Origin: Phyllosticta citribraziliensis
Taxonomy: Eukaryota
Length of the DNA: 64,000 bases
NCBI RefSeq assembly: GCF_038025025.1
Contig: NW_027117341.1
Span: 2,294,001-2,358,000 of the forward strand
Direction: 5' to 3'
A model generated the notes under the pieces. It saw nothing but the letters and a program-made list of their open reading frames with translations, ran no database searches and had not been told where the DNA came from. Positions 5,868 to 58,818 of this stretch are shown here, piece after piece (within the stretch, counting starts at the first letter, position 1; every line of letters starts with the position of its first letter). A program made the position numbers and the translations under genes.

Positions 5868-6651
5868 ATGGAGCGACGCTACAACCTTCGGCCGCTTGCG
5901 AATCGACGATACAGACGGGAGGACAGCAGCAACCATCAACCCCCTGACGAGCCCGACCGCGAAAAGATCTACGCCTGGAGCAGCAGCGGCTCTCAGTTTT
6001 CAGAAGAGCTTGTCGGTGTAGGCGCCTTGGGTACGAAGACTCGATCGGGTTGAAGGACGAAGGAACGCGCCTTTGGCTGACGCGTGGAATGCAGGGTATC
6101 CAGACTCGATCGAGACACGGCGACGCTTCTTCGGCCTCGGCGACAACAGAGTCGCCCTTGTCATAGGAACCATCGCCTTCATGGTCGGAGTGCTTGTCGG
6201 CAGCGTCCTGATGTGGTACCACTGCGCCACCACGACCGCGGCGAACGAGACCGCAGCAGCAGCAGCAGCAGCAGACTCACCCCAACAGCACCAACCACAA
6301 GCCCTGCTCGACCGCCTCGGTAAGGACCTGCAGATGTTGCACTGGAACTCGCTGCAGGCGCTTGGCGTGGCGTCGCCGCCGGGCGCCGCCGCCTCGGACG
6401 ACGACGTCAGCGCATGCCTTAAGACGATCGGCAAGAGCTACCGCTATTTCGGGGGCGTGTGGCATCCAGACCAATGCATATATCACAAGGCGGGCGTGCT
6501 GCACGAATGGCAGTGCAACGAGCTGTACAAGCAGGTGACGAACAAGGGGGATTCGGCGTATTACAGCTGCTTGGGCACGAAGCGACGCCTGGAAGTGTCG
6601 TCGCATGCCATGTGGCGCAGGGTGATGGAGGACGCAGCGGAGGAGGAGTGA
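5868..6651 (+). CDS. Membrane-anchored DnaJ/J-domain-like protein 1; intron 6031-6094
   Basis: A phase-1 intron GTACGA..CTGAC..CAG joins MERRYNLRP.. to ORF 6073. TM segment VALVIGTIAFMVGVLVGSVLMW. J-domain signature SLQALGV..AS..IGKSYR....WHPD..YKQV...AY. Confidence 0.75.
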
Positions 6652-6846
6652 AGTAAAGGAGTGTTCCCTGTCCATGTCAGTCTTTCTCGAGTCCATAAAA
6701 TTGTTGTTTTCTACTTGCGCACTCTTGATCCGTGAAGAAGACATCAACGTCGGCAAGCTTCTAGTGGCCAGGGCCATTTTGGACGACACAAAGAAGATGA
6801 AGCGTCGCCAGGGTCTGTCAGTGAGTCGGGTGTCAACGGGAGTGCC

Positions 6847-7046
6847 TGGCGGTGGATTGTGATGGTCTGGTGGTGCTGGTGGTGATGATGATGGAAGACT
6901 CGGACAAGGGACTCGGACTCCGGGCAGGTCGCTACATGTAGCCAGCCGTCTTAGTCAGCTAGCTGTTCACCTCGCCGCCCGCCGCGCCCCCCACCACCGC
7001 CCACCACCCACCACCACCATCACCAGACCATCACAATCCACCGCCA
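6847..7046. repeat. Inverted repeat, 26-bp perfect arms (6847-6872 / 7021-7046), extendable to ~38 bp
   Basis: TGGCGGTGGATTGTGATGGTCTGGTG and its exact reverse complement. Confidence 0.9.
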
Positions 7047-7256
7047 TGACGCCCTCGCCGACACTCTACGATGATCCTACGATGAAGGACCCTTCTTCTG
7101 CGGCTCTGCTGCTTCAATGTTGCGGGAATTGATGGCTATCGGGGCAGGCTGGCTTGAGTGCCACAAGTCGCCGTCACCGGCATGCCTTTGCACCCTGGAG
7201 AGGGCAGAAATCGTGTGCATTGCTCTATCTACAAGACCGGGCGCCAATCAAGACGA

Positions 7257-7927
7257 TCAAGGCACGAATCGCATGTCCACCTCCGCCTCCAAGCACTGCT
7301 GAATCTCCACAATCTGCAGCTCATGCCAGCGTTTGAGCTTCTCCTTGACGCACACGATATATTTCGCGCGCAGCCCCTTGGCCGCATCCTGCAATTCCTG
7401 CAACACCACCATGGTCGGCACCGACGGCGCGGCCAACGATTGCATCGTCTTGCCGACCTTGCGCAGCCGCTTTGTCGCCTCGGTCTTACTGTACACGGCC
7501 TTGAGGTCCTCGTGGACCGCCTTTTCAACGTCTACTGCGGCTTGGTAGGCCAGCTTGTGGATTGCCTTTTCCTCGTCATAGTCGGCACTGCCGGTGCTGC
7601 ACACGGACTCCCGGGATCCAGAACCAAACCCTGGATAGACGTCGCGATAGTCGGCCTCTGCTTGAGTGTTGTCGCGGGCATTGGAGACGCTCAATGCGCG
7701 GTCATCGTTGGTGGCCAAGCCTTTCAGCCTGTGCCGCACGGCTTCGTACGTGGATTCAGGCGCCTTGAGGGGGGCTGGCTGCTGTGGTGGTCAAAAGTCA
7801 GTCTCGGCTGGAAGCTGCGGCTAATATGCACGCATGGCGATGAGACACTTACATCTTTACTTGACAGATGACCACCCTGCTTCTTCTCCCGGTCCAGGCG
7901 GTTAAACATCTTGTTGGTCGAGGACAT
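7257..7927 (-). CDS. Hypothetical helical protein, paralog of 8401..9105; intron 7852-7782
   Basis: ATG at 7927 (MSSTNK). Phase-0 intron GTAAGT..CTGAC..CAG(CAG) is in frame with ORF 7257..7739. Confidence 0.7.
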
Positions 7928-8400
7928 TGCGATGTTTGGATTCTGAGGATGGAGAGTGCGCTGCTGCCCAGTTGGCTTGCGCGGGCGTCGGTTTAAAAGG
8001 CAAACATGATTTTGGAGACGGAATACCACCGCCATGTGGACGATTGTGGAAGCACGGTGCTAAGGCGCGACGAGTACTTTTTGGTTCGATTGGTTCGAAT
8101 GTTCGATTCTAAAACCGCACCTTCGACTACCATCTTTGCTCGAGGTCCGAGACAGTCGTACCGACAGTTGACTAGGTGGTTCTCTGTTCGACGCCTGACG
8201 ATCACCGTCTTGCGCACCTTGCAAACCAGCATGTACGTATAAAGTCTCTTTTACGCCGTGGAATACTGATTGCTCTAGAAACCCTCCAAATGGCCCCTAA
8301 TCCCGGTCAGGCCGCCCTGAATTTCAATATCAGCAGCTTGTGCAGACCAACGGCAAGTTAAATCATCCTCGTCCTGCAGCCAACCGCAGCAGCCAACAGC

Positions 8401-9105
8401 ATGCTAACCATCCCCTTCCAGTCTTTCCTCGGAGTGGCCATCAGCGAAGACGACGATCGAATCCCGAACATACGATGGAAGGCTCTGCAGTTCGTCCTGA
8501 GGGAAGTGCGCCTGTGGGCGGCCGAGAGAGACTTTTCGGACGGCGTCAACGCGAACAACTGCGAGCCCCTGCTGGCCGGATTCAATCTTGGGGCCTCTAG
8601 CACCACGTACAGCGACAGGGTACGCAGAATCCTGCGCAAGCGCGTGCTCGCAAAAGTGAGGGAGGTGGTTAGGGATGGGAATTCGGATGAGCGGCCGACG
8701 CATTCTACCTCTTCCGCCTCTTGTTCTCCGGGTCCTAGTCGCGGCCGGGGGGCTTCCACGGACGCGTCCAAGCTGCTCCATCCCCCGTTCACAGCCTCCA
8801 GAAGAACGACACGGCGCGCGGCAGTGGAAGCCGCTGTGGCTGAGATAGAGGCGGCGGAACACGCGGCGCATGCCCAGCTGATGGCGCTGTTCGACGGCTT
8901 CTTCGCGAGCCACGGCCAGCGGCGGCACTCGGCGGCGGCCGTCTCCGCCGCCGCGCAGGACCTGGCGGAGCGGGTGGAGCCGCTGCGGGCCAGCTACGTC
9001 GGGCACTTTGAGCGCAAGGTGACGGCGTGGTGCGCGCTGCAGATGCTGCGTGTCGAGGCGTGTCTGGATGCTGGTGCGACCGAGGCGGAAGAGGAGGAGG
9101 AGTGA
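8401..9105 (+). CDS. Hypothetical helical protein, paralog of 7257..7927
   Basis: 234-aa ATG ORF whose C-terminus aligns with that of the divergent neighbour. Confidence 0.7.
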   Translation: MLTIPFQSFLGVAISEDDDRIPNIRWKALQFVLREVRLWAAERDFSDGVNANNCEPLLAGFNLGASSTTYSDRVRRILRKRVLAKVREVVRDGNSDERPTHSTSSASCSPGPSRGRGASTDASKLLHPPFTASRRTTRRAAVEAAVAEIEAAEHAAHAQLMALFDGFFASHGQRRHSAAAVSAAAQDLAERVEPLRASYVGHFERKVTAWCALQMLRVEACLDAGATEAEEEEE

Positions 9106-9579
9106 TGAGTGGGTTCATGTTTGGCGAGGGGGGAGCAAAAGATATCGGTGTTTGGATTTTGCTGTCTAGTCTTGTCGTCCTGTTCCTGTTCCTGTTCCTG
9201 TTCCTCCTTCGGCGTCTCAATGATGGCATCAAGCTTGGACATCGGACTGGCGGTCAGTCAGTAGACGGACGCATCTGGGCTCGGGCGACGGCGGAATCCA
9301 AGGCGTGGTTGGCACAGACAATGGTCGTACAGTTGCGCGCCTCAGCCACTTGTTTTTCTTTTTTCTTTTTTCTTTTTTCCTTCCTCTTTTTTCTTTGGTC
9401 TTTTCACAATTGCAGCTGCCGTCCTGCTTGTACCACCTGCAACACGACGCACTGAGCCCTGCGTTGCATGTTGTGCATCACGTACAATGCGCGCAGGCCC
9501 TTATTTTCTTCTTCTTCACGTGTAGTCCTCTCGGCTCCACCGGCAGTTGCTCTTCTCTTTCGCGTCCTGATTCATCGGC

Positions 9580-10671
9580 ATGGCTGTTCCGCATGTCGCC
9601 CCCTCGGCCTCGTCGTCGTCAGAATCGGAGGACAACAATGACATCCAAGAGTCGATTCGTCACGCCCGCGAGTTTCAACGCAACGCCAAAGGCAGTCTCA
9701 AGTGGTCGACGGCGCTGCTTGGGATCCTGGTAGCCGCCATGGTTTCTCTTGTCGTGGGCTACTTTGCGGCAGACGCGCGTGGTGGTGGGTTCGGCCATGG
9801 TGACCCGGCCGCAAACGCCACGACCTGGTCGGCCGACAACGTGAGCGAAGACTTCAAGCGGCTGCTGGCGAGCCGCAACAGCCAGCCAGCCATCGCGGAA
9901 ACGGTCCGCCTCTCCGCAGCGCTCAAGTCCATGGCTGAGCAGGACTGGCACAACCTGACGCGGGCGCCTCTTGTGCAGGACGTGGTGCAGGCGGCGCTGG
10001 ACAGCGTCTTCTCAACCAATTGGAACTTCTCTGCGACGCAAGACGCCCTGCGCGACCTGAAAACGGCCGTCTAGGACGCCGTATCGTGCGTTGGGCTGGC
10101 CGTCGTGGTCGGCGAGGGCGTGTGCGAGCACGTCGCGGCCGTCTTTAGCGACGTGGAGCTGGCCATGCTCTTGCCGCGCGAGACGGGCCCCAGGCGGTCA
10201 AGATGCTGGCCGATGTCTTGGAGCGCGTTGCCGGCAGGCTAGAGAAAGCCGCCGTAAAGATCGAGGGCCGCGCCTCCAATCCCAGACACGAGGTACGTAT
10301 GTGCATGATATGCTCGTTTTCAAATACAAAGAACGTCGACTGACTGACCTTCGCACCAGGGCCTCCACTCGACACTCAAAGCCAAGCTGGACGCCCTCCA
10401 AGAGTACACCAACACGCTGCAGACCGAGATTGACGGGCTCGTCCGCGCTTGGATTTGGACCAGCGTCGACGCGTAGGGCGGGCGAATCTTCAACTACGCG
10501 CCGACGCTCCCGACGATGCGAGACAAACTCGACCAGGCGACATCTCTGCGCGCGGAGCTGCAGCGGCTGGCCCAGACCGTCGACGAAGGCGCCGCGCTCA
10601 ATGCCTACGGGCGTCTCCTGAAGGAGCACCTGCTGAGCGATGTGCGGGACGACGACGTGTCGGCCAAATAA
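9580..10671 (+). pseudogene. Single-pass helical glycoprotein (family member B), disrupted
   Basis: TM segment ALLGILVAAMVSLVVGYF and several NxS/T sites. In-frame TAG at 10072 and 10474, frameshift near 10180, intron 10293-10359. Confidence 0.65.
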
Positions 10672-10764
10672 TGGGTCAGTGCTAAACACGTACGAGTATA
10701 AGTAGACTTCGCGGGGGTTTCATTCACGAGATGATTGGTATATTCGACGTGCCCATCTACTTGC

Positions 10765-11940
10765 ATGGATTTGTCCGCGGCCTTTACCACGCATTGGCTT
10801 GCCGTTTTCCGCGCATCCATTCGAATACACTCCTATCTCGGACCCGACCTGGTCTTTGCGCGTATAGTACTGCCTAAGACTGCCAGCAAACTTAAAGCCT
10901 AGAAGTCAGTCTTGATCATCTTCATTTCGCATCCACTCGCTTCAATTCGATCCCTCAGCGGCATCGCCATCGTCCAAGCCATCGTCCAAAATGCCCTTGC
11001 GGAGCAAGCTCGTCTGCGGGCGCTGCTGCACGCGCAAAACCGGTCCATGGAGAACGTCTAGTGCCTAAATGACCGCCGCGTCGACATGATGGCGTGCTTC
11101 ACCCACAAACAACTCGAGGCGTTTGTCAAGAAGCTGATGTACGGTACCGTGAGAGTCCCAGGCTTGTGACCAAAGTCATGCGCGACAAGATGCTTCTTCT
11201 TCTGTCAAGGTGTTTTTACCCAGCTGACGAACACGTCTATGTGGTAGTGGGTGGTGCCGGCACACCACGAGGGGGATGAGCTCTACTTTGCTATTTCGCC
11301 GTATGATGATGACTCTGATGAGTTTGACACGTCGGACGACCCAGCCGTCCACAACGTCCACTTCCAGTCCAAGGCCTCATCCACCTTCTCTCGTACCAGG
11401 ACACCACCGCCATCTCCCGCCCCTACTCCATCTTTTACAATACCACCCATAGTGTCGTCGATCAAGCGCGGCAAGCAGCCCATCCGCCCGCAGCTGAAGC
11501 TTGAGACGTAGTCATCGGACGAGCATCTACCACATGCGCGTCCAGTCCAACGCAGACAAGGCTTTCTCTCTTTCTAGGGCACCGCTGCCATTTCCAACTC
11601 CCACTCCGTCTCCTCCACCGCTGCCCATGATGCGGCAAACAGCCCATCCGTCCGCAGCTGTAACTCGAGGCGCATTCCAAGTCAGAGCCCGCGCCCGCAG
11701 CGCAACCACCCGTCTCTGTCGCCGCCAGCACAGGAACCACCCGGACAGCAGCCCGCGTCTCGGTCGCGGGCTCCCATCCAACGCCTGGCGTCCTTGGTAT
11801 CGCCCACGACGGTGGTGTTGCGCCGCGACGCGCCTCTTGCGTTGGACCCACACACGGAGACTCCGTCTGCCAGCAGGATGGATGCGCCAACAGATGTCGA
11901 TGGATATGCCTGCGGGTGGGGCTGCGGGTTCTGGCTGAAA
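10765..11940 (+). pseudogene. Degraded gene with internal ~165-bp duplication (..KQPIRPQL.. twice)
   Basis: Long frame interrupted by TAG codons; 11340-11510 resembles 11515-11675. Confidence 0.4.
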
Positions 11941-12670
11941 TGGATGTGGTTGGCTTGAAGAGACGTGGGGACGAGGGTAGGATGGCTCGGAGGAGTGAGG
12001 ACGGAAGCGGTTGTTGCTTTCGTTTTCTTAAATTCATGTTAGCGAGCTGGTCAGACCAAGTGAGGCAAGGGGAGAGTGATGACATATTGGAATGTCGGCC
12101 GCATCTACCCGCCTTCGGTCGCTACGGGCGCTCGTCTTGTCACCTTCTCTGCCGCTGTGTTCAGAGGTTGACTCTGAATGGCGCATTTGCGGCGGGACAG
12201 AGGTCAGACTTGTGGTAATGGCCATGATGAGGTACGGGAAGGTCAGATATTCGGACCGAGGTCATGATTGTGGTGTGTGATGTAGACGACGAGGACGAGG
12301 ACGAGGACGACTCGGTGACTCACATAAGCTCCATGGCCTTGCCACCTTAGGCATCTTCTTTTCTCTCTCACCTCACGCTTTGACGAGCCACTGATCAGAT
12401 CCACAGACTTTGACCGCCAGCGGACGCCCTCGCCTCGACTTTTCCGACCCTCATGTCTTGTCTCGCCCACTACAACAATGCAATGTTTCCTCTGGCCCCG
12501 CCCCGACCGTCACAATGCGTCTGCTGTAGTCTTCCAAGCGCTCTCGTCGATTGACTTGGATGGTCCCTGAATCAAGAGAATCAACAGAATCAAGACTTCC
12601 CCCCCTCCAGCCGCCGCTCGCCTTGGGACCCCAGATATCACCACCTATCCGCATATTCAACCTCCACCCG

Positions 12671-13271
12671 TCAGCTTGAGGATGCGGCGCAGCCGAAGGT
12701 CCTGCTCGCCAACGGGGCGTAAGCGGCGTTTGCGTTCCCGACGGCCGTGATGGCTTTGGCAACAGCAGACTGGTACCGCCGCTCTGCGACCTTGGCCTTG
12801 GTCAGTGCCTGCCGGGCCAGGTTGATGAAGCAGTCAAGGAAGCGGGCCTCGGTCGGTGTTGTTTCGTGCTGGGCTATGCCGTCCCGTCTGTCAGTTAGTG
12901 CCTTTTTGAGTGAGTGGGTAGGGACCGGCTTACTGCTGACCATATCCATCTCTGCCTCCATGATGCAGCAAGCAGCATATGTTGTCGTTTGGGAGGCCCT
13001 CCGTCTGGACCGCGCGACGCCCATCATCTTCTTCTTCTTCTCGCCGAAGGCTCTGGACGTCATGTAGCTGGCGCTCCAATTCCGCAATCTCGTCCGCTTG
13101 AAGCTTGTACTGCAGCCTCAGGTCCGCGTTGGCGCGATTGAGTTGGGCAAGTTGTGTTTCGACTTGGGCGCTCGTTTGACGGGCGCGATCGATGCTCGCC
13201 AGCAGCTCGTCTGCCTCAGCGCAGCCGTCGTCGCCGCGGTGCGGAGGGCTCCCTGTCCGCCAGCGCTGCAT
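12671..13271 (-). CDS. Coiled-coil protein, probably 2 exons (intron ~12932-12889)
   Basis: ATG at 13271 (MQRWR), heptads VETQLAQLNRANADLRLQYKLQADEIAELERQLHDV, GTAAGC..CTAAC..CAG intron. Confidence 0.55.
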
Positions 13272-13379
13272 GATGGTGTGTGTGTGTGGGTGGGTGTGGG
13301 GTCGTGGTCGTGGTTGTACGGGCATGCATGAAGACACCAAGACCTAATTTCCCCCTCCACACCACCTGCAAACGCGGCC

Positions 13380-13859
13380 ATGGGCGGATCGCAAACGGCC
13401 CCGGCCCCGGCCCCGGCCCCAGACTGGGACAAGATGGAGGCCTTGGTTCTACGGCTCAGGCAGATCACGAAGCTCCAAGGCCAGGACATCGATGAAATGC
13501 AAGCGGCGCTCAACGACGTGACCAACGCAAAGAACAAGTACAAGGCCGAAGCGGCGGCATTGTTGCAGCGCGAGCAGCAGCTGAGCCAGCAGGTGGCCGA
13601 AACCAACGAGGCTTACGATGAGCTGTACCGGGAATGGGACGCGTCCACCAAGGCGCATTACAACGAGGTGGCGCGTTTGCGCCAGGTCATTGTCGAACAG
13701 AGCGAAGTTATCAACCAGCGGGCCACCATGAGCCACCCACAGGCGACACCGGCGTCATCATCCCAGCCAACTACTACTACTACTACTCCTCATCCATTGT
13801 CGCCCACCATCTGCCACGGAAACCGCAGACCGTCTCGTCCGCCAGCGGCAACTGGATAG
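13380..13859 (+). CDS. Coiled-coil protein, head-to-head with 12671..13271
   Basis: 159-aa ORF with a ~100-aa continuous heptad region. Confidence 0.7.
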   Translation: MGGSQTAPAPAPAPDWDKMEALVLRLRQITKLQGQDIDEMQAALNDVTNAKNKYKAEAAALLQREQQLSQQVAETNEAYDELYREWDASTKAHYNEVARLRQVIVEQSEVINQRATMSHPQATPASSSQPTTTTTTPHPLSPTICHGNRRPSRPPAATG

Positions 13860-14315
13860 GCTTCCCCAACCCGACGTGGGCTTTTACTTGTCGCTGTGGT
13901 CCTTTTAAAAGGACAGACGTCGGCAGCACGTTGCGCATGGCGTTCTGGAGGGTTGGCTCTGCTTCTTCCAGTGTCCGGCCTTTGCGACGCGGTGCTCGCG
14001 GCGGTGTCGTTGCTGTCGAGGACTCTGTCTGCCTCGGGGGGGGATGGGATCGAAGCTTCCCTGCTCCCAACAGTCCCGGTCTTTTCGACAAGGCACCAGT
14101 CGTGTCAGTCGCGCGGCGTGCGCTGGGATAGACAGATGAGGGCGTTTGACGTTGCTGGGTCATTACCCCTATCACGAGGCTTGCCTACAGCCAGAGGGCA
14201 AACGGAGGGTCCATCCCTCACGATCAGGTCAAACTGACACTTTCAGTTTTCACTCCGACGTACCTGTGCAGCGTCAGTCGGAGACGCAGGCTTCTTTTTT
14301 TTTCTTTTTTTTTTT

Positions 14316-14716
14316 GGGTAATATTCTGAATCCACACCTTATTGTCTCAAAACGCCTGAACCTACACCTAACAATCTGAATCCACACCTTGTTATAATTA
14401 TCCCGATTGGGTAACCCCCTGTAATAATCACCACCACCACTACCACCACCACGCGCGCGCACGTCTTCAGCCATGTTTAGCCCCTGGTTATTTAAGGTTC
14501 TACTATCGCGCTCTAGAAATGGACCACGCCGGTGTAATCCTAGTACTAAAACACCCCTATATTTTATAAAAATTTCACTAATACGGACCTCATTACTTAA
14601 CTAATTAGGGAGAAGTGTGGATTCAGAGGTTTTAGATAATTAAGGTGTGGATTCAGATTGTTAGGTGTGGGTTCAGGCGTTTTGAGACAATGAGGTGTGG
14701 ATTCAGATTGTGTCCC
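14316..14716. mobile_element. Non-autonomous TIR element (MITE), probably Mutator-like
   Basis: GGG..CCC termini and ~75-bp TIRs built from CTGAATCCACACCT sub-repeats. Flanked by T-runs on both sides (compatible with a 9-bp TSD). AT-rich interior. Confidence 0.85.
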
Positions 14717-15133
14717 TTTTTTTTTTTCACCCGACGCCGGGTCTTTTGCATCATGAGACTGGCGGGCCACTCATGTCACTCAAAGGGGGAGCGGGATGGC
14801 AATTGTTTGAAAGTTCCGATCGCTCCCGTCTGTTTTCCCTGCTCATCACTCATGGCCGACAGATGATGTGCTCACATCGCGTCCGACAAGCCGGCGGGCT
14901 TTTGACGACGCGCTTCACTGCCATTCCCCCTCATTTCGCTGAAGCGTTCCCTGGTTGCCGCAGCCGTTCATAATGTCTTGAACCTCCCGTGGCGCCCCCT
15001 TTTTCCTCTTGCAACAATTTGAGCGGAGAATAAATAACAGCAGAGGACGTCACTTTCCTTCTCGCTTCAGCCCCTTTCCATTCATCTCTCCACAAAAGAA
15101 TCGAACTTCTGCTACGCAAACCGCTACCCGGGA

Positions 15134-15776: not shown

Positions 15777-16052
15777 TCCGTTCTTAGGTAGTTAGCACGT
15801 TCACGCTCGCAAGATGTGGATTCGTGTTGGTGTTGTCGTACCTTTTCTCGCGACGCAATATTGACAGTATTCGCGCGCCTGATGCAGACGCTCGACGATG
15901 ATGAGCCCACGCAGAGGAGGGCGGATACGCATGCAGCTGGCCGTCGGTCAACAGTCAGCACGTCTAGGTTGACTGCCCACCCATCATCTCATCTTCCATA
16001 CTCCATCTTTTGCCGCACGCACGCACGCACGCATTGCAACAGCCATCCGAAC

Positions 16053-19600: not shown

Positions 19601-22600
19601 GCCCAGATAAAGGCCGTGGGGACGTCGTGGGGAGGAGTTGCTGCCGCTAGACGAAGCCATGATCACCCAGATAGGGGCCGGCGGAGTGGGAACCCGGTTG
19701 CCAGCATCATGAAGGGATAATTCTGCTGCTGCTGCGGACCCCCGAAAAGGCCGTCGTCGTACTGAGTTTGGACAAAGAGCGTCCCTCTGAGATCCCCATG
19801 CGCCGCGCCGTTCCCTCGCCGGTGGTTCCGGCGTTCAGACTGGACGCCAAAGGAGTGTATGGCGGCGGCGTGGCATTGTCCTGTTGTTGATTGGGTGGGT
19901 CCCATCGATCCATCATTTTGTGGACAACACCCAGCAGTCTTCCGTCGCGTCGTCTCAGCTGCAGTTCACCTGGGGTGGCGGAGGGGACGCTGCGGCAGAT
20001 AGAGCGGTAGCTGTAGACAAAATCAATAGAACGAAGCTACATTATCATGCTCGCACTCTACGAAATACGACATACCACTGCGAGAGCAAAAGCGAGATCA
20101 GCGTCGCGGGGGGAACGTGGCCGCCGTCTTGGTTGATCGGAGAGAACGTCTGCGTCTTGCAAAGGAATGGGCGGGGGTGGAGTTACATAGTAATCTGGCT
20201 CCATTGACAACCTCATGTGAAAGGAGGGCATGAGCGTGACGCGCTGAGGAACGGGGACGCAGGCGGAAATACCGCAAGGCGACGGGCCGCGAAAAGCTTC
20301 AACAAAGATCTGCTGATTAGTGTAGTGTTTAAGAGGGATTTCTTAAATCTCCGATACAGCGACCGAATGAGACTGACGGACGGTAGGGGCGGGATGTAGG
20401 TAAGTTTATCAGAGGGGAAGAACAATAGTCGACAAGATAGGTAGGGGGGTTAAGACAGGAGTAATCATGCAAACACGTGTAGTTTACCATACCATCAAAG
20501 CTCATCTGCCGCCTGGCCATTGGAATAATGGCGGAGCCGATGCAAGTTTTCTTGCTCCACGGAGCTGATGCAATGCTACGTGGCCCGGCGATGATGTTGG
20601 ACGATGGCAGAACTGCGGAGTTGTCAGCGACCTGGGACGGGTAATGGTTGTAACGCATCGCGGCACGGTGCAACCGACGCGGACTGACAGCCATCGTACC
20701 GAAGCAACGAGTCAATCTTGAATTGAGTCTTCTGTTTGGTGGGGCAATGGTTCTAGCGACTGTCGCCACAATAGGGTCGCTCAGCTGAGCCAATCAGCTG
20801 GGATCGACGGAAGGAGCAAGGCAGTGGCATCTTACCAGACTGAGCGATTCGGGGCACCGTCAACTCATCTGTGGCCTGTGGCTCTGACTTGCAAGGTGAA
20901 GGCGAGGCGGGACTGCGATGTATCCAGCTGCGTTGGTGCGGAAGTATCAATCACAAAGCGCAGTAGCTCGAAATGAAAGGAAGAGCGAGACAGCGAAGGA
21001 AGCTTTTCTGAGTGGGCAACTCTCCATGAAGCGAGCAAAGGCTGTGGTACTGCTGAGCGGTGCGGGCTGTTATTAGGGCCTGACTAGGTCCTGCTAACTT
21101 TGATCAGAACGGTAGTTCTAGAGCAAGAGGGAGGAACTGACGCGTCTGGTATGTTCGTGAGCAGGGAAGGACTAGAGGGATTGCGATGGTAGGTATTCCA
21201 ACCAATAGACTCATGGCGAGCGCGGCTGCGGCGGCGTACTAGAGCAGTAACGGGGCTACAGCATCGCCATCGCCGCTCAGTAAAGCCGCATCCTCTCTGT
21301 TAAGGGCTGCGGCGATTACCTCGAAATATATGAGATGAGTACGGATCAGAGGGCGGACGTGCAGGATAGCGGCGAGCCGGACAACGACAATGACGACGAC
21401 GACGACGACGACGACGATCGATGAACAGCAGCTTGGCGACAGTCAGGGCAGTCAAGCCGACAAAACAGAGGGGGGCGACGACTGACGGACAGCAAAGAGG
21501 CCAAGCATAGAATGAATTCCGAACGGTGAACTAATGCGCAGCCCCTGGGGGGAAGGGGGGATGAATAGGGAGCAATAGTGCGGAGGAAGTCTGTCAGAGT
21601 GTTAGCATATTGGAAGGAATGTAGTAGAATCAGCAAAGCATACCAGCGTCGGTGAATAAGAGCACCATTATACTTGGTAAGCACAACTGTCGGGAGCGCA
21701 ACGGCGGAACTATGTCAAAGCGTTAGTGATAAATGGAGAGAGGGAGGGAGGAGTTGATGGCGCACATGAGACGGCGACTAGGTGGCTATGCACCCGGCTT
21801 GAGGGGACATCGAGGGGTCCTGTCAAATTTTTGTTTTGCGGTGATTGTCGACTCTTGCCTGGGCGCGGCGGGCGCGGTCGGGTCCAGGTAATGTTGCTAG
21901 AGAAGTCGGATTTGGGGTAGGAGCGTAGTAACTCACTGGCGAACCGGCGGCGCTCTCTCAGCGTAAGAGGCGAGCTCAAGGAGGGCAGCAGAGGAGCGAA
22001 TCGGGACGACGTCGATGTACGTTGATCAAGCTGGCATGAGGCGTCGGGGGACGGAGGGTGTGTATTCGACCGTGGGTCCGGAGGCCTGGAACATGGGTGG
22101 AGCGCATGCGTCAGGACAAGTCCGTGGTTGAGGAAGCATGCCTAGCAGCAGCGAGCAACGATGGGAGAGACCAATTGTGCGAGGTCAGATGAAAATCTAA
22201 ACCGAACATTGAATGAATATCGAGCCCAATGCGCGCCTGAAACTGAGAGGGAACTTCGAGTGGCAGAGAGGATTCTGCCAGGCCGCGAAGGTGCCGAAGC
22301 AACTCGTACAAGATGCCACATCTGCATTTCCAGCCTTTGATCAGTACAAGCTATCTGGAAATGAGGGGAAGGGGTGTCTGTTGACGCACTTGTAGTTTGA
22401 TGATGGCGCTGTGTCGAGTGCTGCTCTGAGGGAATGAAGATGGCTGTAGTGGACGCTGGCAGAACTTTGATAGGGTAAGCAAAGACGAATCTGGGTCGGC
22501 AGAGTGTGCTAAAAGCCGCAGACACCAACCTGTTCTCGATGAGTAGATGGATATGTACTTGTCTGAGAGCATGCGGTCGTGTTGAGAAGGTACCACCAAA

Positions 22601-23613
22601 CAGCCATGCCGACCGCAGGGAGGTCTGGATCGGCCCGGACTTCGAACACAGACACCAGACCTCTATGCGATCGGTGGTGTGGGAAATGAAATACTGAGAT
22701 GGCTGCGGCACGTCGGTCAAGTAGGAGAGCCTGGAAGTTTCCCGGTCTGAGTGGGGGATTGATGACAGACGGTGCGGGAGCGTCGCTGTGAAACCTGTCA
22801 GCCGTTGCAATTGAGGATTTGAGACGGCGAAGCAATACGAGCTAGAAGCAGAAGAAGAGGGAGAGGCACCAGAGGCTGAGCGGCCATGAGCCATGGATCA
22901 AAACTCATCGTCGACGGACGGACCAGCAACCACGAGAAGTTTCACGGTGAAACGCCATCAGCAATGGTTGCAATCGAGGCACTGAGACAGGGAGGGAGCA
23001 GAAAGCGCAAGCAAGACGACGCGGAGCCATGTCAAGGCAGAGATTGAGCGCGACCATTGGCTGTTGAAGCTCATCTTCTTCTGCAGCATGGCGTAGGCGG
23101 AGGCGTAGGCTGACCTGGCGAACGGAGGCGATGGTAGATGAGGGGGACAAGACGGGACTGAGGTTGAGGATCCGATTGTTGAGGTTGAAGGTTGAATCGA
23201 TTGATGACATGGAGAGAAGGACATGGAGCTTCCGGTTAGTAAGCAATGACGTCATCCATCACCACCCCGGCCACCACCACCACCACCACCACCACCACCA
23301 CAACCACCGCACCGCACCCGCACCCGCACCGCACCGCAGGCATCCAGGCATGCATACCTCCTTGGGTATACTGAGACAGACTTCTGCATTGTGTCTCTCT
23401 ACAATGCAGCCGCCCGCCGGTCCCTCTCCACGGGCCTCTGCTGCTCTCCTACAGAACCGAACCGAAGCAAACGCCCGGCGACGGCCGTGGAGCCTCCTGG
23501 ATGCCATGGCCGCAACGTGAGGTACCGTACCTTTAGCAGGCCTCTCCCTCCCCTCTATCGTCTTCTTCCTCCCTTCTTCAACCTACCTACCTCCTACCCT
23601 CCTACCTTCAGCA

Positions 23614-25098
23614 ATGACTCTGGTCGTCCAGCAGGTGGCCCATACTGCGTGGCGCCTGGCCCTAGGGGCGCTGAGCTCGCTCGACGGCTACGTTCCTTCA
23701 ACCAGTCTTGGTCTGGTCGGCCTGCTGCTTGTCCCACTCGTTGCCGGCGTCCTCTTCGTCTTCTGCCTCTGTTTTGGCCGTCTTGCCACCGCAACTCACC
23801 TCTCAATCCACATGGCGCAGAACCAGCATCACGAACAGGCCAGCCTACGCCAGCACCAGGACCCAGCGCAACCGCGGCGTCGCTCTTCCACGGCCTTGCA
23901 ACTAATCGACGAGGCCATCCGCGCCGTGCAACAGCGCAACTTCTGGCGGAAAGTCGTCGTCTTCGTCGGGGCCGCCTTTACATTGGCGTTGGCACTGGCC
24001 GCCCACCACTGGTGGTCCGTAGCCCACGCCAACGCCAACTCCAACGCCAACTCCAGCCTGTTTCATGTCAGCAGCCTCATGGACAGCGCGACCAAAGGCT
24101 CGTCCGAATCCGACGCCGTCTACAGGGCTTCCCCAGACGTCGACATCCTCGTCCACCATATCAAGGCGCTGGCCCCAACATACAACGGTGGGCAGCTGCG
24201 GCGACTCATGTTCGAGGACACTGGCGATGACGGAGTCTGCTGGAGTGATCTCCTCGCCGTCAACGTCCGAGAGACCAATGTCAAGGCAGGGATACTGCGA
24301 AAGGAAGTCGGCAGTATGCTCAACCAGATGAGCTGGTGGCGTTGGCGAGATGTCATCAAACGAGTGCGTCTGTCTCTGTTTTAGAAGGTCTTGTCGCTTT
24401 GCGCTGACCACCAACCAACCAACTAGGTCTCCGTCATGGGCGAATCCATCCTCGCGTTTTCATGCTCAGAAGCCGTCGCTGCTGCACAACCTTGGCGCTG
24501 CGTCGCCAACGCCCGATACCTGTTCGTCCAGGCCCGCAATGAAGTCGGCGGACTCGAAGACATAGCCAGGCGCACGCTCGGCGCGGCGTCCAATCTGTCC
24601 TCCAGGATGAACAAGCTGGCCAACGCCACTGATAGCGTCCATGAATGCTACAAGGGGCGCATGCTGGACGCAAAGGACGGAGTCGAGAAGCTCGCAAAGC
24701 TGCCATTGTATCTGAAGGTGGCGCGGTGCATCCTGCCCAACATAGAGACGTCATACCCTGCGATGGTCCTTCGGCAGTCTACCAAGCGCTTTGAGCTGGA
24801 GGATGAGCATGGCCGCGCCGTGATTGAGAGGTTGGTGAAAGCGAGGCTTGGTGCTCGGCGTCAGCTGCCGGCACAAGTGCTGCAACACTTCATCCAGACT
24901 CTCGAGGAGTACCTGGCATTCACTGCGCGGAGTATGGCGGAACTGGATGGGCTTCTGGAGGACATGGTCGTTGAGCGGCACATGGAGCTTGGCTGGGAGG
25001 AGAGGCGGAAGATGGTGTTCACAAGCATGAGGACAATGGTCACGATCATGGCTCCTCTGGCGATCAAGGGCAGCACGGTCAATGTGGACCAAAATTGA
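23614..25098 (+). CDS. Membrane protein with long helical domain (family member C); intron 24364-24426
   Basis: The GTGCGT..CTGAC..TAG intron joins ORFs 23614 and 24436 in frame. Two hydrophobic segments and NxS/T sites. Confidence 0.75.
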
Positions 25099-25416
25099 TC
25101 ACGCCGTCTATTGGATAGAAGGGTTGGTTCTCTTCCATCATTCTGTCAACAGTTCTCTCCCGGGAGCATCTTATGTCATGTAGCCCATCAGCAAGAGATA
25201 CTTAATTCTCCACTCTCCCCCACTGCCCGGGTTTCTTTGCACGTATCCTTGGTCGCTTCTAGTGCCATCTGGACATTGCGTCTCATTTTCTCCATTCATT
25301 CATTACTTTCCTCATCATTATACCTATCAAAGTCGTCGCAGCACGTCCCAAATCCAAAGCCCGACCAGTGAGTGAGTACATATAGTAGCGAGCCATTCAT
25401 TGCCTTCGCCGTCTTC

Positions 25417-26264
25417 CTACTCCTTGAGCATTGCATCAGTCGTGTCGATCGTACGCTGCTTCCATTCGTTTTTCTTGAGCTCGAGCTCGGCGACCCTGGC
25501 CTGCGCTTCCTTCTCGGCGTTCTCAGCTAACATCAGCTTGCGCTCAAGCTTAGCGACCCTGCCCTGGACGATGCCCTTATTTGCAGCTGGCATCTGCCTG
25601 CGCTCAAGCTCGGTGACCCTGGCCTCTATCTCCTGGACGCTGCTCTCATTTTCAGCTGACATCTGCCTGCGCTCAAGCTCGGTGATCCTGGCCTACAACT
25701 CCTGGACGCCGCTCTCGGCGTTTTCACAGCGGTTCCCCCATTCAATGTTGATGCGGTTGATTCTGTCCAAGATGTTTATTATCCTGACGTTGTCCTCCCA
25801 CCCTGTCCCATCTGCTGAAATACGCCCTGGATCTCGCCTCTGATGTGCTCCAACTCGGCTCTCAATGCCTCAAGGCCTTCGGAGTGCGCGGCCTGCTGAC
25901 CCTGCGCAGGCGCCGACGCCTCCAGGGCATCGATACGGACTTGGTGTCGGTCGTGGCGGCGGTGGAGCAGCACCAGCTGGTCGAATTCACGATTGAACCT
26001 CGCCCATAGTTCTTGCCTGGCTCTGAAGTTGTTCTCCCGCTCCTGTGCCGTCTGCTGACGTACGTCCTGAATCTGGCCTCTAAGGCGCTGCAACTCGTTT
26101 TCGGTGCGCGTGGCTTGTTCCCGCGCAAACGCTTCCAAGCCGACCACACGCACGCTGCGTTGGTGGTAGTGGTGGTGGTGGAACATCGACTCGTAGAGCA
26201 TGCTAATGGCCACTTCTCTCTCGTCGTCAGGGTGGATCTGTATCGTGTCCAAGCTACGCGACAA
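25417..26264 (-). pseudogene. Long coiled-coil protein with ~20-23-aa repeats (ARVTELERR), disrupted
   Basis: Frameshift near 25800 and TAG at 25695-25693, where sister repeats have GAG/CAG. Confidence 0.6.
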
Positions 26265-27843
26265 AGTGATGAGTGAGTGATGCAGATGATGTGCTATGGG
26301 TTGGGCTGCGTAGTCGTCGGTTGGCAGGATGCAGAGAATGTTGAAAGGTAGCCCTCAGCGCCCGGTCATGTCTTGGTATTCACCCAACCCCTCCGGCCGC
26401 CCCCTGAAGAGAATAAACAGAAAGAAAAAAGAAAGGAGACAAATGAGACCGTCCGGACGGCCGGATCATGTTGCGCTCAGCCAAAGGGGAACACTCCCCG
26501 TCATTATCTCCATTGGCTGCTGCGGTGTTGTTACATCTTTCGGCCGTCTATCTTCTACCTATCTTGATGTCTCACGGAAGTTCTACTAAATGTTCTATAA
26601 TAGGGGCACTCACTTAAACCAGGCACTCCTTGTGCGTGCTCTCAGACCATTATCTCCATCCACTAAGAGCCGCCGGGGGTGCGGCGCCATGGCGGCGGAG
26701 AGCGGCTCTACTCATTAAACACATCTAAAGCGCGCATACGGGCACTAGCAGCAGAGACAGGGGGTAGGAGGCAGGGGCATGATGATGCCGATGTTTGCGC
26801 TTACAAACAGACCGCATACAGGGAGCAGTCAAACACTCTACTCGCCCCAAACCGGTGATTCACTTCATCATCCAGCACCCACTCGCCCGCAACGCGTGTC
26901 ATTTGAAGCCATGTTGATCGGAAGAAGGGGAGCACCAAGAGAAGACGGAGAAAGAAATAATGACGTTGACAATTGAAACCATAAAGTGACTCGAATCAAT
27001 ACTCTAAATCAATCATGTAGGTGTTGGCTCTAGAGGTCCAAGGCTGCTGCTGCTGCAGCTGCTGCTGCTGCAGCTGCTGCTGCTAGGCAGCGGCGGCGCA
27101 CTGGTATTCATCTTCTCTAGAGCTGCACGTTGATGTTGACTGTTGGCGAGAAGCCATGCCATCTTTAAAAGCGGTCGATCGACTGTCGCAGCGCCTTAGG
27201 CGACGCTGAGTGTGCAGAGATGCGGCGGCGGCGAGCGTCGGCGTCGTCGGCTTCGTCGTAAACATAGAGACGAGGGGCCATGGTTCTCTGTCGGCGCTGG
27301 CCGTGTGCTAGGGAGGGAGAGGAGTCGAGAGGAGTGGAGTAGAGTGAGTGGATGGACGAGGAACGCAGAGCCAATAAAAACTGAAAAACAACGGAGCGTC
27401 AGTCACCCGAATTCCATATGCAGCGTGTTCCGTTTTCTTTTTGACGCTTGCGATTGTTCATCACATTCACCATGTCTAAGATAAGAGGAAGTGTTAGCCG
27501 CTCTCGTATCCCCGTCACTGTCACTGTCAGCCTGCAGGGCTATCCATACATGCTAACGCACATAGGCAGGTTGATCGACGCCAGGTGCCAACGCTTCCTT
27601 GCACTGTCGCCTGCACGCACATGGTTTTAAAAAATGAAAGTAATTGTGTGAACTGTCCATTCCACTATCTACTACTTTTTATCGAAACAAGAAAGGCAGT
27701 GGTTGAAGTGAAGTTTCTCTCATTCTGGGATAAATTACAATGGATGGCCAATATTTCTTGTGGCCTTTTGAAAGGCTTCTGTTGAAGTGGAGACTTTTGA
27801 AAGGAAAAGGGTTAGACAATTTACTGAGCTCAAGACTTTCTTC

Positions 27844-28371
27844 CTAGTTTTCTGAAGCATTGTCCTTGGTTCCTTCAACGAAGGAGACGGACTTCCTGCG
27901 CTTGGGCTTCGTATTTGCAGCCACCAGCACATCGGCAAAGTCGGTCACGGCCCTGGCGGCAAACTGCTCGTGGACCCACGCCACCCAGTGCGGATGGCCG
28001 GGCGCAACGCCGCCGCTGTTGTTGCTGTCGTTGCTGCCGCCGCCGCCGCCGCGGTACAGCCCGCCCATGTCGTGAATTTCGCGCACCAGGCGTGCGGCGA
28101 GCGAGCGGATGGCCGTCGAAGGCGAAGGCGATGGCGATGGAACGACGACTGGCACCGCAACTCCCGCGTCCTGCTTGCTGCCGTTTCCGTCACCATGGTC
28201 CAACTCACCGCTCACTGCGGCGTTGGATTTCGTGGTCCAAACTGGGGCCGGCGGGGTCGGAGACGGAGAGAGAGGCGACGCAGCAGTTGGATGGCCGCCG
28301 GCCGACGTTGGCGTTGGCGTTGGCCTTGCCTTTGCCCCTGTCATCCATCTCTTGAGCCACGAGCGCAGCAT
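27844..28371 (-). CDS. Small low-complexity protein with C-terminal KRRKSVSF (RVxF-type PP1 docking motif)
   Basis: ATG ORF with GC-rich codon usage; the motif is visible in the translation. Confidence 0.6.
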   Translation of the reverse strand: MLRSWLKRWMTGAKARPTPTPTSAGGHPTAASPLSPSPTPPAPVWTTKSNAAVSGELDHGDGNGSKQDAGVAVPVVVPSPSPSPSTAIRSLAARLVREIHDMGGLYRGGGGGSNDSNNSGGVAPGHPHWVAWVHEQFAARAVTDFADVLVAANTKPKRRKSVSFVEGTKDNASEN

Positions 28372-29961
28372 ATGATTTTTCAGGAGAAGTTGGCAGCAAG
28401 GGGCTGGCATGAGATAGACCAGCGGCCGCGTGGATGACGACCGGCTTGTCTACACGCGGGAAATACATGCAGGTGGTGGTGTCATTGGCTGACAAGGGAG
28501 CGTGTACATTGGTGGTAGCCTGTTTTGCGTCAGCCAACCAAGCGAGCAGAGATGCCGGGGACAGTGACACCTACCTCTTGCTCCGCCGCCTGGCCTCGGT
28601 GCAAGTGGCACCGCATCAATCTCTCCAAGACCAGTGTCCAAGCGCCGAAGCCCTGTCTGACCGTGACCGCGACCGCTAGCGGCTAGAAATAGCAGCAGCG
28701 CGGCAGGCACGCATTGCGAGAGGTAGGTCAGATGAGAAGTTTGCCGGGCGTCGCCGCCGCTGGGCGTGTCGTCTCCGTACGTGCATGCGTGCGTGCGTGT
28801 GTGCGTACAGGACCTCATGGCGTGAAGGAGACCTCCATTGCGCGCATCACCGCGGGCACAAGGCTTCTAGAAAGTCGAAGCTGCAATGCCATAGTAAGCC
28901 AGCGAGGGGGTACGGACAGAGCAAACGCAGTGTAGCAGCACGTGCCATGGTTTCGGCCCAACAACCAAGGAACTCGGCGGCCCCGATGACCGTGATGGAT
29001 TCAGGAGAGGCATAGCACGGTCCGGCGACTCAAGAAAATGCCAGACATGACAGATTGCGCGGCGTGAGGAGGGACAGTCTTTGTCTGGGACATTTCAGGC
29101 TGATGATGGATGGATGAAGTAGGGAGCCGCGGCAGAGATGGACGCCTAGCTGCCTGCTAGCAGAAGATGTGATGATGCTTTGCTCAAGGACCTCCCATCC
29201 TGTCGTTGTGAGCAGCAGCGCAGGCGGGTCGATGTATTTCTAACATCATGGATTCATCCACACGACGCCAGCCACGGTGGTTCGCTGCCTGAAGATGACT
29301 GCCATGGCGAGCAACAAAGCTACCGTTCGCTCGCGACTGACGCTGACTATCAAGGCTTGCTGCTGTATTCGGCCGACGAACGACTCGAGGCCATGTTGTT
29401 GTTGTTGTTGTTGTGGTAGTGGTGGTGGTGGTGGGGCCGTCTTCGGATCTAGCGTGCGTGCAGTCGCTGGCTGGAACTGTATGTATTCCGGCTGGAAGGA
29501 AGACGTGGATGGATATCAACGAGGTGAAGTTCTGTCGAAGTAAACGACGGCCGAGAAACAATCCTCTTTTGAATGGCTCTGCTCTGCTCTGCTCTGCTCT
29601 GCTCTGCTCTGCGTCTTTTCCTCCTCCTGCCTATCATATGCGTCGACGTTGCCATATCCTTTCATTGACTGACGCAGTCGTCCAAACTTCTGTCGCTCGT
29701 TCGCAGCGTCGTCGTCAGTTAGAGCGTTCGTTTCAGGGCGGCATAGTCGTCAGGTGGTTGGTGCAGAGACTGGCCACCTGCATCATCCACGGCGGCATGT
29801 CTGCCTGCTGGAACGAGCCTTGTCTTCGGCATAGCCTGCCTCGGATTTTCAATTCGTGTAGCAGTCGTGATTCGTAGGTGTTCTGGTTCCTCGTCCGAGG
29901 CATGCTTGCGACTTGTGCATCAACGACTGACTTTGACATAGGACGAAGGTCACATTTCTAG

Positions 29962-30252
29962 ATGCTACCCAGACGTAGTAGTCCTGTTTGGAAATACACG
30001 GGAAATAAGAACGGGGAGAAAAGCGTCGGAAAAAGGAGAAACAAAGGCAAAAAAATCCAAAGTAGTACTGTTTGGAAATACAAGGGAAATAAGAAAGGGG
30101 AGAAAAAAGTCGGAAAAAGGAGAAACAAGGGCAAAAGAAAACGTAGTACTGTTTAAAAATACAAGGGAAATAAGAAAGGGAAGAAAAGTGTTAGAAAAAA
30201 GAGAAAGAAAGACGGAAAAAAAAACCCTCAAAAAGATTTCTTTGGCGAATGA
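29962..30252 (+). pseudogene. Lys/Arg-rich repeat peptide (3 x 27-28 aa, STVWKYKGNKKGEKKVGKRRNKGK)
   Basis: Repeat periods of 84 and 81 bp keep the frame. The third copy has TAA where copies 1-2 have TGG. Confidence 0.5.
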
Positions 30253-30419
30253 AGAACAGAGCACGGCAGACAGCAACAACAACAACGACAAGACCAGGCA
30301 AACACCATGAGGCGCAAGATTAGCCTCCTCAATCACCTCCGACCAGGCCATCCTTTGGATTGGACCTGTGCTGTGCACCTGGCTGGGGACAACCAATGCT
30401 CCCGAATCTATTCCTCCTC

Positions 30420-31430
30420 TTATGATGACTCGGGCCGCCTGCGCTCTTTCTCCCACTCGGGCCCAAGACCACCCTTCAGAAGCGAATCGCCCATGAGCCA
30501 GGCCAAGTGCCTGTTCCTGCGCACCGAGCGCTCTACCTCTTGGTCGATTTTGCGACGCTCCTCTTCCCAATCAAAAAAGTCTTGGTCACCAAAGCCAAAC
30601 CAGCCACGAGAGCTTCTTCGCAGCTGGCGGAAACAATCAGCAACCGTGTGGAATGGCTTGCTGAGCCTTTCGGCCATGAAGATGAGCTTGAAGTAGTCGT
30701 GGTCATCCATGTCCATGGCTTCATCCGGTGAAACTGGCCCATCATCCATCATGTCATCAACATCGAGGTCCTCGCCGTCGGCTAGAACGTCCAGATAGCG
30801 GCTCTTTTGCTCGTTCTGCAGGCATTGGAACCTCGCCGCCGTGTATGCATCGTCAAGTACACCCGCCACAATCAGCAGGTGGCGCTCAGAGAGATTGAAG
30901 ACGGCGCGGAGTCCCGGGGTGGATTGCGGGCCGCCCGGTGCCGTGCTTGTCGGGGGCTTTGCAACGCGATCCGGATGCCACAAGGCACGCACACGTCGAT
31001 AGCCTTTTCGAACAGCGCGGAGGCAGGCCCGGGACTCGGTGCTGTTCGGGGCGCGAGCGTTCTGCCAAGAGTCGGTCAAGTTGACTGGTGTGCCAAACAA
31101 GGTCCACGGATGCATCTGAGCCCCGTCGAGTCGCGGGCAGAGCCGAGGCAGTTGGAACATCCAGTCGAAGGCATCGGCTTGTGGAAGCATGGGAGGGGCA
31201 GGACAGACGAGTGTTGGCGGCGGCGGCGGCGGCGGCGGGGCGGGCGACGTGGCCAAGAAGTGGGCGAGCAGCGATACAAGCACGACCGAGGCGACTGTCG
31301 CGTATCCTGGAATGGGAAAGGGTCGGCGTAGAGAGTCGATCAAGGCGGAGAGCAGCGGCCAAGCTGGACGGGAGGCATTGCTGCCGACGCGGGCAGGGGG
31401 GCGTGCAGGGCGACGCTCACGCAAGGACAT
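30420..31430 (-). CDS. Membrane-anchored DnaJ/J-domain-like protein 2
   Basis: 336-aa ORF with TM segment ATVASVVLVSLLAHFLA and ACLRAVRKGYRRVRALWHPD..LDDAY. Confidence 0.75.
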   Translation of the reverse strand: MSLRERRPARPPARVGSNASRPAWPLLSALIDSLRRPFPIPGYATVASVVLVSLLAHFLATSPAPPPPPPPPTLVCPAPPMLPQADAFDWMFQLPRLCPRLDGAQMHPWTLFGTPVNLTDSWQNARAPNSTESRACLRAVRKGYRRVRALWHPDRVAKPPTSTAPGGPQSTPGLRAVFNLSERHLLIVAGVLDDAYTAARFQCLQNEQKSRYLDVLADGEDLDVDDMMDDGPVSPDEAMDMDDHDYFKLIFMAERLSKPFHTVADCFRQLRRSSRGWFGFGDQDFFDWEEERRKIDQEVERSVRRNRHLAWLMGDSLLKGGLGPEWEKERRRPESS

Positions 31431-48475: not shown

Positions 48476-48515
<40 letters not shown>

Positions 48516-54900: not shown

Positions 54901-54914
54901 ATTAGAGAGGATAT

Positions 54915-58787: not shown

Positions 58788-58818
<31 letters not shown>

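Follow-up and report, generated by a model that had tools for sequence, protein, structure and literature searches.

The canonical J domain (Pfam PF00226) presents a basic helix II, followed by the motif [YW]-H-P-D and a return helix. Among the membrane proteins of the endoplasmic reticulum (ER) that carry such a domain on the luminal side are Erj5, Sec63 and Jem1 of yeast and ERdj1 and ERdj2 of mammals, and Jem1 and Kar2 have a role in yeast karyogamy. Escherichia coli DjlA, in which a membrane anchor and a linker precede a small C-terminal J domain, keeps that domain in the cytoplasm. J and J-like proteins are also associated with membranes in the Pam18:Pam16 system, a J/J-like heterodimer (PMC3237618), and in the type IV proteins of Plasmodium, a genus with a lineage-specific expansion; J-like domains with a corrupted HPD tripeptide and a doubtful association with Hsp70 have been described (PMC10349383). 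In working J domains HPD is essential, and residues R22, K26 and R27 contact Hsp70 (PMC10349383). We describe two genes, J1 and J2, that both lie within one window of 64,000 nucleotides (nt) of Phyllosticta citribraziliensis DNA (contig NW_027117341.1, positions 2,294,001 to 2,358,000; the window is this whole stretch, and positions count from its first letter) and that appear to encode paralogous membrane-anchored proteins with a divergent J-like domain.

The two proteins share one architecture, in which an Arg-rich low-complexity N-terminal part is followed by one strongly hydrophobic segment, a linker and the motif C-L-x..K-x-Y-R..W-H-P-D. The hydrophobic segment reads VALVIGTIAFMVGVLVGSV.. 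in J1 and ATVASVVLVSLLAHFLATS in J2, with best 19-residue Kyte-Doolittle means of 2.49 and 1.84, and the basic N-terminal tail and single transmembrane segment that an earlier note on this DNA had attributed to both proteins were recovered. By hydropathy, the transmembrane segment of J1, VALVIGTIAFMVGVLVGSVLMWY, occupies 6151..6219 on the forward strand (+); that of J2, a transmembrane or signal-anchor segment on the reverse strand (-), is YATVASVVLVSLLAHFLAT at 31245..31304, and in the alignment it corresponds to the hydrophobic segment at the N-terminus of the relative P0005. The J-like domain core of J1 (6349..6576, +), supported by BLASTP, hhalign and AlphaFold2, holds a remnant of helix I (SLQALG), helix II, W-H-P-D and helices III-IV. 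Its counterpart in J2 (30786..31106, -), supported by searches of the PDB, BLASTP, hhalign and the profile, is made of helix II (RACLRAVRKGYRRVRALW), HPD, a loop and a long helical region ending in FQCL, and three N-x-S/T sequons are noted for it. W-H-P-D is intact in both proteins, with HPD encoded at 6463..6471 (+; CAT CCA GAC, the Trp immediately before) in J1 and at 30969..30977 (-) in J2.

We place the probability at roughly 0.5 that J1 and J2 are single-pass type II membrane proteins whose very divergent luminal J-type domain docks on BiP/Kar2. From the architecture and the comparisons below we infer the following topology, compartment, disulfides and Hsp70 partnership. The basic low-complexity tail would most likely be cytosolic, and the signal-anchor would most likely place the C-terminal part of the chain in the lumen of the ER or secretory pathway, in type II topology. 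That part would form a very divergent J-type domain in which a basic helix II leads through a W-H-P-D loop into a return helix; its helices would probably be stapled through disulfides by a family-wide Cys pair and, in the J1 subfamily, by a second pair. In the manner of the membrane J proteins that reside in the ER, the domain would then dock at the membrane on the luminal Hsp70, BiP/Kar2, and stimulation of the BiP ATPase would also be expected of J1 and J2, in which HPD is intact.

Comparison with the described systems brings out both likenesses and departures. J1 is colinear with residues 15-70 of DnaJ, and the W-H-P-D variant also occurs in the J domain 2ej7 and in some Plasmodium J proteins (PMC10349383). 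However, J1 and J2 fall below every curated threshold for the canonical domain; conserved Cys residues mark where helix II starts and where the return helix ends, and the J1 subfamily adds two others; the loop after HPD is, in a MAFFT alignment, some 28 residues longer in J2 than in J1; helices III and IV are fused in the model of J1; and HPD is not invariant in the family. With the ER-luminal J proteins they would share a J-type domain that is held to the ER membrane on its luminal side and recruits BiP/Kar2. In J1 and J2, however, the anchor is N-terminal and the domain C-terminal to it, and their family, unlike a conserved housekeeping gene, is multi-copy, fast-diverging and confined to one genus. 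No orthology to families of the Erj5, Sec63, Jem1 or ERdj type was detected in a profile search of 1.84 billion representative proteins at E<=0.001. The order of anchor, linker and domain is that of DjlA, and both DjlA and HscB resemble the J2 subfamily in that their loop from HPD to helix III is longer; unlike J1 and J2, DjlA passes the Pfam DnaJ model at 44.2 bits and is devoid of the conserved Cys residues. Pam18/Pam16 and Plasmodium type IV are likewise membrane-associated, with HPD corrupted in some members, and Plasmodium offers a further likeness in its lineage-specific expansion (PMC10349383, PMC3237618), whereas in J1 and J2 HPD is intact and helix II basic, and they would act in another compartment.

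J1 and J2 are, judged by their sequences, paralogues. BLASTP aligned them with 11 identities in 30 positions across ACL..K.YR..WHPD (E 9e-6), and comparison of the J1 and J2 family profiles returned a probability of 89.4% (E 2.1e-6) over 88 columns. Profiles of the domain alone scored 51.0, the maximum among 100 column shuffles being 20.8, and J1-like proteins from other species matched the J2 locus over 78 residues by tblastn. The paralogy and mutual alignment proposed in the earlier note are consequently borne out. In what follows, counts refer to 24 family proteins, to 14 distinct domains, or to an 18-row alignment (A6) of both groups.

Every row of this alignment has the first Cys, W, H, D and one particular Ala, and 17 of the 18 also have the last Cys, the exception being P0005, where the gene model looks faulty. 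Since the first Cys is present in 18/18 rows and the last in 17/18, the conserved Cys pair that had been noticed in the two proteins is real; its codons in J2 are at 31023-31025 and 30822-30824 (-). The J1 group has two additional invariant Cys residues that are absent from J2, one of them two residues past HPD and the other early in the return helix, and family alignments place the resulting four codons of J1 at 6415-6417, 6475-6477, 6514-6516 and 6568-6570 (+). The end of the domain is marked by a family element, A-x-[YF]-x-C-[LM], and SAYYSCL of J1 therefore pairs with AARFQCL of J2. The motif given in the earlier note thus holds for its ACL..K.YR..WHPD part, but not for 'D.AY...CL', which is not colinear between the two proteins. 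A match made by hand between 'DDAY' in J2 and the 'EAY' that is canonical in helix III was likewise dropped, the family and profile alignments being preferred.

The sequence similarity of this domain to J domains is above chance, and the evidence supports a divergent J-like domain in a manner that is consistent but entirely sub-threshold. DnaJ was the recurring Pfam family among the relatives: five of 11 gave matches below the gathering cut-off of PF00226 (27.8 bits), at 23.8, 19.6, 17.1, 13.6 and 12.4 bits, the highest belonging to P0011 (E 4.7e-5, profile positions 15-63). As a calibration, the same type of search scored HscB, a genuine J protein of E. coli, at 26.3 bits and another E. coli locus (L006) at 23.7, both below the cut-off. 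BLASTP aligned J1 with the J domain of E. coli DnaJ over residues 15-70, a stretch of 56 amino acids (aa) free of gaps (E 3e-4), and J2 with DnaJ over the 18 aa of helix II and HPD (E 1e-5). Against a reference profile built from only four E. coli J-domain sequences, hhalign gave the J1 family a probability of 90.2% (E 1.5e-6, 46 columns, score 36.4) and the J2 family one of 49.8% (E 1.7e-4, score 28.3). Column shuffles, 100 for each family, reached at most 18.7 and 16.1, respectively; the real scores are about twice as high and exceed 100 of 100, while reversed alignments, at 11.4 and 8.0, remained near background. A PDB sequence search with the J2 domain had a single match at E<=10, the J domain 2ej7 (E 0.2), and the same search with the J1 domain had none at that limit. 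UniRef names four relatives, distributed over both groups, 'J domain-containing protein'. The ESM Atlas returned nothing usable for J1; its lead from J2 to a DnaJ cluster (0.81) fell within the range of shuffled proteins and was not used.

For J1, structure prediction is compatible with a J domain without singling one out. The AlphaFold2 model of its domain, computed from the 18-row alignment, has a predicted local distance difference test score (pLDDT) of 84.5 and a predicted template modelling score (pTM) of 0.71, with helices at 2-17, 20-23, 36-57 (helix II), 63-66, 72-93 and 96-118. HPD lies in the loop after helix II, and a long additional N-terminal helix stands ahead of the domain. The top Foldseek rows for this model are mostly J domains: 2ys8 (probability 0.97), 2ej7, 2dmx, 6rzy, 1hdj, HscB and 5nro_B, a DnaK-bound J domain, with 6jmg also listed. 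Of these, 2ys8, 2ej7 and 2dmx are the human J domains of DNAJC27/RBJ, HCG3 and DNAJB8. In a Foldseek-independent search with VIA-align, the rows with the highest sequence identity were those of J domains (20-22%).

All 24 family proteins have the His of HPD, and 23 of them the Asp (P0005 reads HPV); both residues are present in 18/18 aligned rows. The net charge of helix II lies between +2 and +7 in 24/24 family proteins, and the equivalent of DnaJ K26 is Arg in 22 of them. J2 has R, R and R at the equivalents of R22, K26 and R27, with a net charge of +6 over the helix; the net charge of the J1 helix is +3.

J1 and J2 are, by sequence, one member each from the two subfamilies of a small, multi-copy and fast-diverging family that is so far known from Phyllosticta only. 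An hmmsearch with the J1+J2 profile over the 1.84 billion representatives recovered 13 proteins at E<=0.001, queries included. All 11 with a named source are from Phyllosticta, the other two being J2 itself, whose exact protein sequence is present in a public protein collection, and one assembly record; no relative outside the genus was found in that search. The J1-like group comprises P0006 and P0011-P0014, the J2-like group P0004, P0005 and P0007-P0010, and the named species are P. citricarpa, P. paracitricarpa, P. citriasiana and P. citribraziliensis. The best matches in other species are 41% identical for J1 and 54% for J2, which implies fast divergence or old paralogues with differential loss; a 49% match of J1, P0011, belongs to a second P. 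citribraziliensis strain. Word-indexed searches with J1 or J2 alone returned only their own proteins (the annotated full-length form of J1, and J2 itself), and a search of this kind with a 14-sequence alignment, swamped by low-complexity words, recovered three family members from 8000 scored candidates.

The family may also be clustered. A third paralogue of J2 type, P0009 (J3D65DRAFT_666697, with HSD in place of HPD), is on the same 2.5-Mb contig as J1, outside the window, with a GenBank accession that differs from that of J1 by 12 numbers. This suggests a local family cluster, although accession numbers are a weak guide to closeness. In a second strain, one J1-type and one J2-type gene lie on a common contig. 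If J1 and J2 are what we propose, Phyllosticta has evolved and expanded its own membrane-tethered J-like set, below the Pfam DnaJ threshold and with non-canonical Cys residues, in which members with intact and altered HPD coexist as a small natural series on what a J domain needs for BiP and on its fate after HPD decays. The accessory islands of these citrus-associated fungi would also gain a further genus-only gene family, one that is a divergent, genus-restricted version of a known domain class with some relatives already labelled automatically as J-domain proteins.

Several observations weigh against a luminal J-type domain that docks on BiP. Neither J1 nor J2 matches Pfam DnaJ at E<=10, and none of the 11 relatives attains 27.8 bits, so that the check by DnaJ profile proposed in the earlier note came out negative, and its J-domain claim holds as a divergent, above-shuffle likeness but not at the curated threshold. 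The hhalign match of the J2 family, at its 49.8% probability, spans only 21 columns, those of helix II and HPD. The J1 model has a single continuous helix (72-93) in place of canonical helices III and IV; Foldseek gave it no row at E<=0.001, with J-domain rows at E>=0.41, and VIA-align placed J domains (Z 5.7-6.5) amid generic helical bundles that reach Z 7.4. In the proposed check by structure prediction, J domains were thus the best Foldseek rows while their VIA Z scores did not exceed those of unrelated bundles, and the fold evidence is compatible with a J domain without being specific to one. A single-sequence AlphaFold model of the J2 domain (pLDDT 46.5) was unusable. HPD is kept in 10 of the 14 distinct domains and altered in four (HTD twice, in P0012/P0024 and P0026; HSD in P0009; HPV in P0005), and P0026 belongs to the same 90% cluster as P0004, which at 54% identity is the best-matching relative of J2. 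J1 itself has G, R and Y at the equivalents of R22, K26 and R27, with one basic residue of three. Finally, P0026 as annotated has an additional N-terminal hydrophobic segment, which, if real, would reverse the topology.

The alteration of HPD in four of 14 domains keeps alive a tentative alternative, well short of even odds, in which the domain is a J-like scaffold without co-chaperone activity: a J-domain descendant, like Pam16/Tim16 or Plasmodium type IV, whose lineage-specific function in the setting of the accessory island would be that of a helical binding module stabilised by disulfides. It would suit a family that occurs in Phyllosticta alone among the 1.84 billion representatives, that has no close counterparts elsewhere (at best 41% for J1 and 54% for J2 in other species), whose DnaJ scores all fall below the Pfam threshold and whose surroundings, 44 kb in extent, are poor in domains (1 of 31 long open reading frames with a Pfam match). 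Precedents exist in corrupted-HPD J-like domains (PMC10349383) and in the J/J-like pairing of Pam18:Pam16 (PMC3237618). Yet J1 and J2 keep W-H-P-D, the family keeps the His in 24/24 and the Asp in 23/24 proteins, and no member, even with an altered HPD, has lost the strongly basic helix II, a pattern that docking on Hsp70 would select. Another view, that a generic helical hairpin or three-helix bundle with a basic helix and HPD resembles J domains by chance or convergence, without homology, could draw on the unrelated bundles that lead the VIA-align list (Z 6.5-7.4, against 5.7-6.5 for J domains), on the lack of any Foldseek row at E<=0.001 and on the absence of Pfam matches for J1 and J2. We consider it highly improbable, given hhalign scores about twice the best of 100 shuffles in both families with reversed controls of 11.4 and 8.0, the alignment of J1 to DnaJ over 56 residues without a gap, the recurrence of DnaJ in five of 11 relatives, and the J-domain rows that head the VIA-align list in sequence identity (20-22%).

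The orientation of the domain bears on another alternative. The conserved Cys residues, the N-x-S/T sequons C-terminal to the anchor (one in J1, three in J2 and others in relatives), the basic N-terminal flank and the signal-like anchor of P0005, whose hydrophobic segment occupies the very N-terminus, as a signal peptide would, make the luminal, BiP-facing orientation a reasonable reading of the sequences. In J1 the N-terminal flank of the anchor has a charge of +2 and the C-terminal flank one of -1. In the J2 subfamily the charge difference is small, with 0 to +2 on either side in eight of the 10 members scored; for P0010 and P0026, the two others, the best hydropathy window is not the aligned anchor. 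The small differences in this subfamily would agree with a domain that faces the cytosol, after N-out/C-in insertion or because of a cleaved signal peptide upstream, and that meets cytosolic Hsp70 at the membrane, as happens in DjlA and in those ER proteins whose J domain is cytosolic. The signal-like segment at the N-terminus of annotated P0026 would also agree, as would the order of transmembrane segment and J domain in DjlA, which can be cytosolic. We nevertheless judge this topology unlikely: the anchor is preceded by an Arg-rich segment of 40-105 residues that would be hard to translocate, the Cys residues are invariant and sequons follow the anchor, and the hydrophobic segment of P0005 is itself an N-terminal signal. 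The luminal type II reading is in this respect the preferred one, and the earlier interpretation was right in kind, as to paralogous membrane-anchored J-type domains with Cys residues, while overreaching on a BiP-facing topology and on nuclear fusion.

Nuclear fusion had been brought in through the gene next to J1. A Brr6-like open reading frame (ORF) at 5002-5691 (-), mapped as a feature to 4999..5691 and matched by Pfam PF10104 (Brr6_like_C_C; E 1.8e-18, 67.1 bits), diverges from J1, and 119 bp (5692..5810, by their coordinates) separate the two start codons. The head-to-head adjacency is therefore real, but the meaning given to it is unsupported. It could be read as a nuclear-envelope module, in which J1 is co-expressed with the Brr6-like gene through the 119 bp and brings BiP to sites of nuclear-membrane fusion or pore insertion. 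Brl1 and Brr6 carry a perinuclear, disulfide-stabilised antiparallel helix bundle (PMC13043894), and the products of J1 and its neighbour could therefore share one lumen; moreover, Jem1p is a DnaJ homologue of the yeast ER alongside Kar2p, Sec63p and Scj1p also being named (PMC2132949). On the other hand, the adjacency is known from one genome only, J2 and the other family members have no known Brr6 neighbour, our literature search found no paper that combines Brr6 with a J domain, and the 2026 Brl1-Brr6 paper (PMC13043894) mentions none of Kar2, Jem1, DnaJ or Hsp70. We regard such a module as very improbable. The link to nuclear fusion made in the earlier note comes down to adjacency, with no relatives outside Phyllosticta and no paper on Brr6 and J domains in that search, and a bearing of our findings on nuclear-membrane fusion is unsupported. 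A stop-to-stop frame of 485 aa (4325-5782, -), without a Pfam match, overlaps the Brr6-like ORF in another frame.

The window itself is divided by an abrupt boundary at which the guanine plus cytosine (GC) content falls from about 55-63% to 22-29%. The final 20 kb (44001-64000) form a block rich in adenine plus thymine (AT), an isochore of the type produced by repeat-induced point mutation, and the GC-rich, orphan-rich region with J1 and J2 adjoins it. Across 1-44000, only one of the 31 long stop-to-stop ORFs scanned (at least 180 aa) had a Pfam match at E<=0.001, namely 33446-34342, with Scm3 and Myb domains; the Brr6-like ORF, scanned separately from this set, also has one. This region resembles a lineage-specific island, and tblastn found two copies of the J-like family in the window, J1 and J2. 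As a long shot, J1-type and J2-type proteins might constitute a genus-specific luminal pair of J and J-like partners, comparable to Pam18/Pam16, stapled by disulfides and clustered in accessory islands, that, together with the divergently transcribed Brr6-like protein, brings BiP to the nuclear envelope; the island would then be a fast-evolving set of nuclear-envelope and centromere genes, its evolution possibly driven by conflict in nuclear fusion or meiosis.

The gene model of J1 had to be revised. The earlier note was correct in that J1 exists and in the extent of J2 (30420-31430, -), but it started J1 at 5868, where 5811 is likelier, and missed a putative intron. The ATG at 5811 is the more likely start because SRSxSWPL..RYxLR, encoded upstream of 5868, is common to the relatives P0006 and P0011; the NCBI model, J3D65DRAFT_602049 (P0002, 271 aa), also begins there. 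Because the conserved upstream residues put the start at 5811, 'MERR' at 5868 was dropped as a candidate N-terminal di-arginine motif for ER retrieval. Exon 1 (5811..6030, +), which rests on the ORF list, the start of P0002 and the stretches shared with P0006/P0011, encodes the Arg/Ser-rich N-terminal tail, presumed to be cytosolic. It would be followed by one putative intron of 64 nt (6031..6094, +), read from splice signals in the sequence (GTACGA, a CTGAC branch point and CAG), which restores the frame into exon 2 (6095..6651, +). Exon 2 comprises the transmembrane segment, linker, J-like domain, acidic tail and stop, and its translation matches P0002 at 100%. The NCBI model bridges the frame change by omitting about 22 nt (6033-6054, from tblastn coordinates), a gap that looks too short for a fungal intron, and the 64-nt intron looks more plausible; the downstream frame is identical in both versions.

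The coding sequence of J2 (30420..31430, -) is uninterrupted in the ORF list, with 336 aa and no evident intron. Its C-terminal acidic and basic region (30420..30785, -) is conserved within the J2 subfamily, as seen in the alignment, and has no known domain by Pfam. The start of J2 is overlapped in a different frame by an ORF of 89 aa (31340-31609, -) in which a TCC/TCG repeat encodes a long run of Ser; this frame may be an upstream ORF or mere repeat sequence. Just downstream of J2, an ORF at 29962-30156 (+) contains two nearly identical copies of a unit that is rich in Lys and some 30 aa long (VWKY.GNK.GEK.VGKRRNKGK), which indicates a short tandem DNA repeat in the region 29962-30351.

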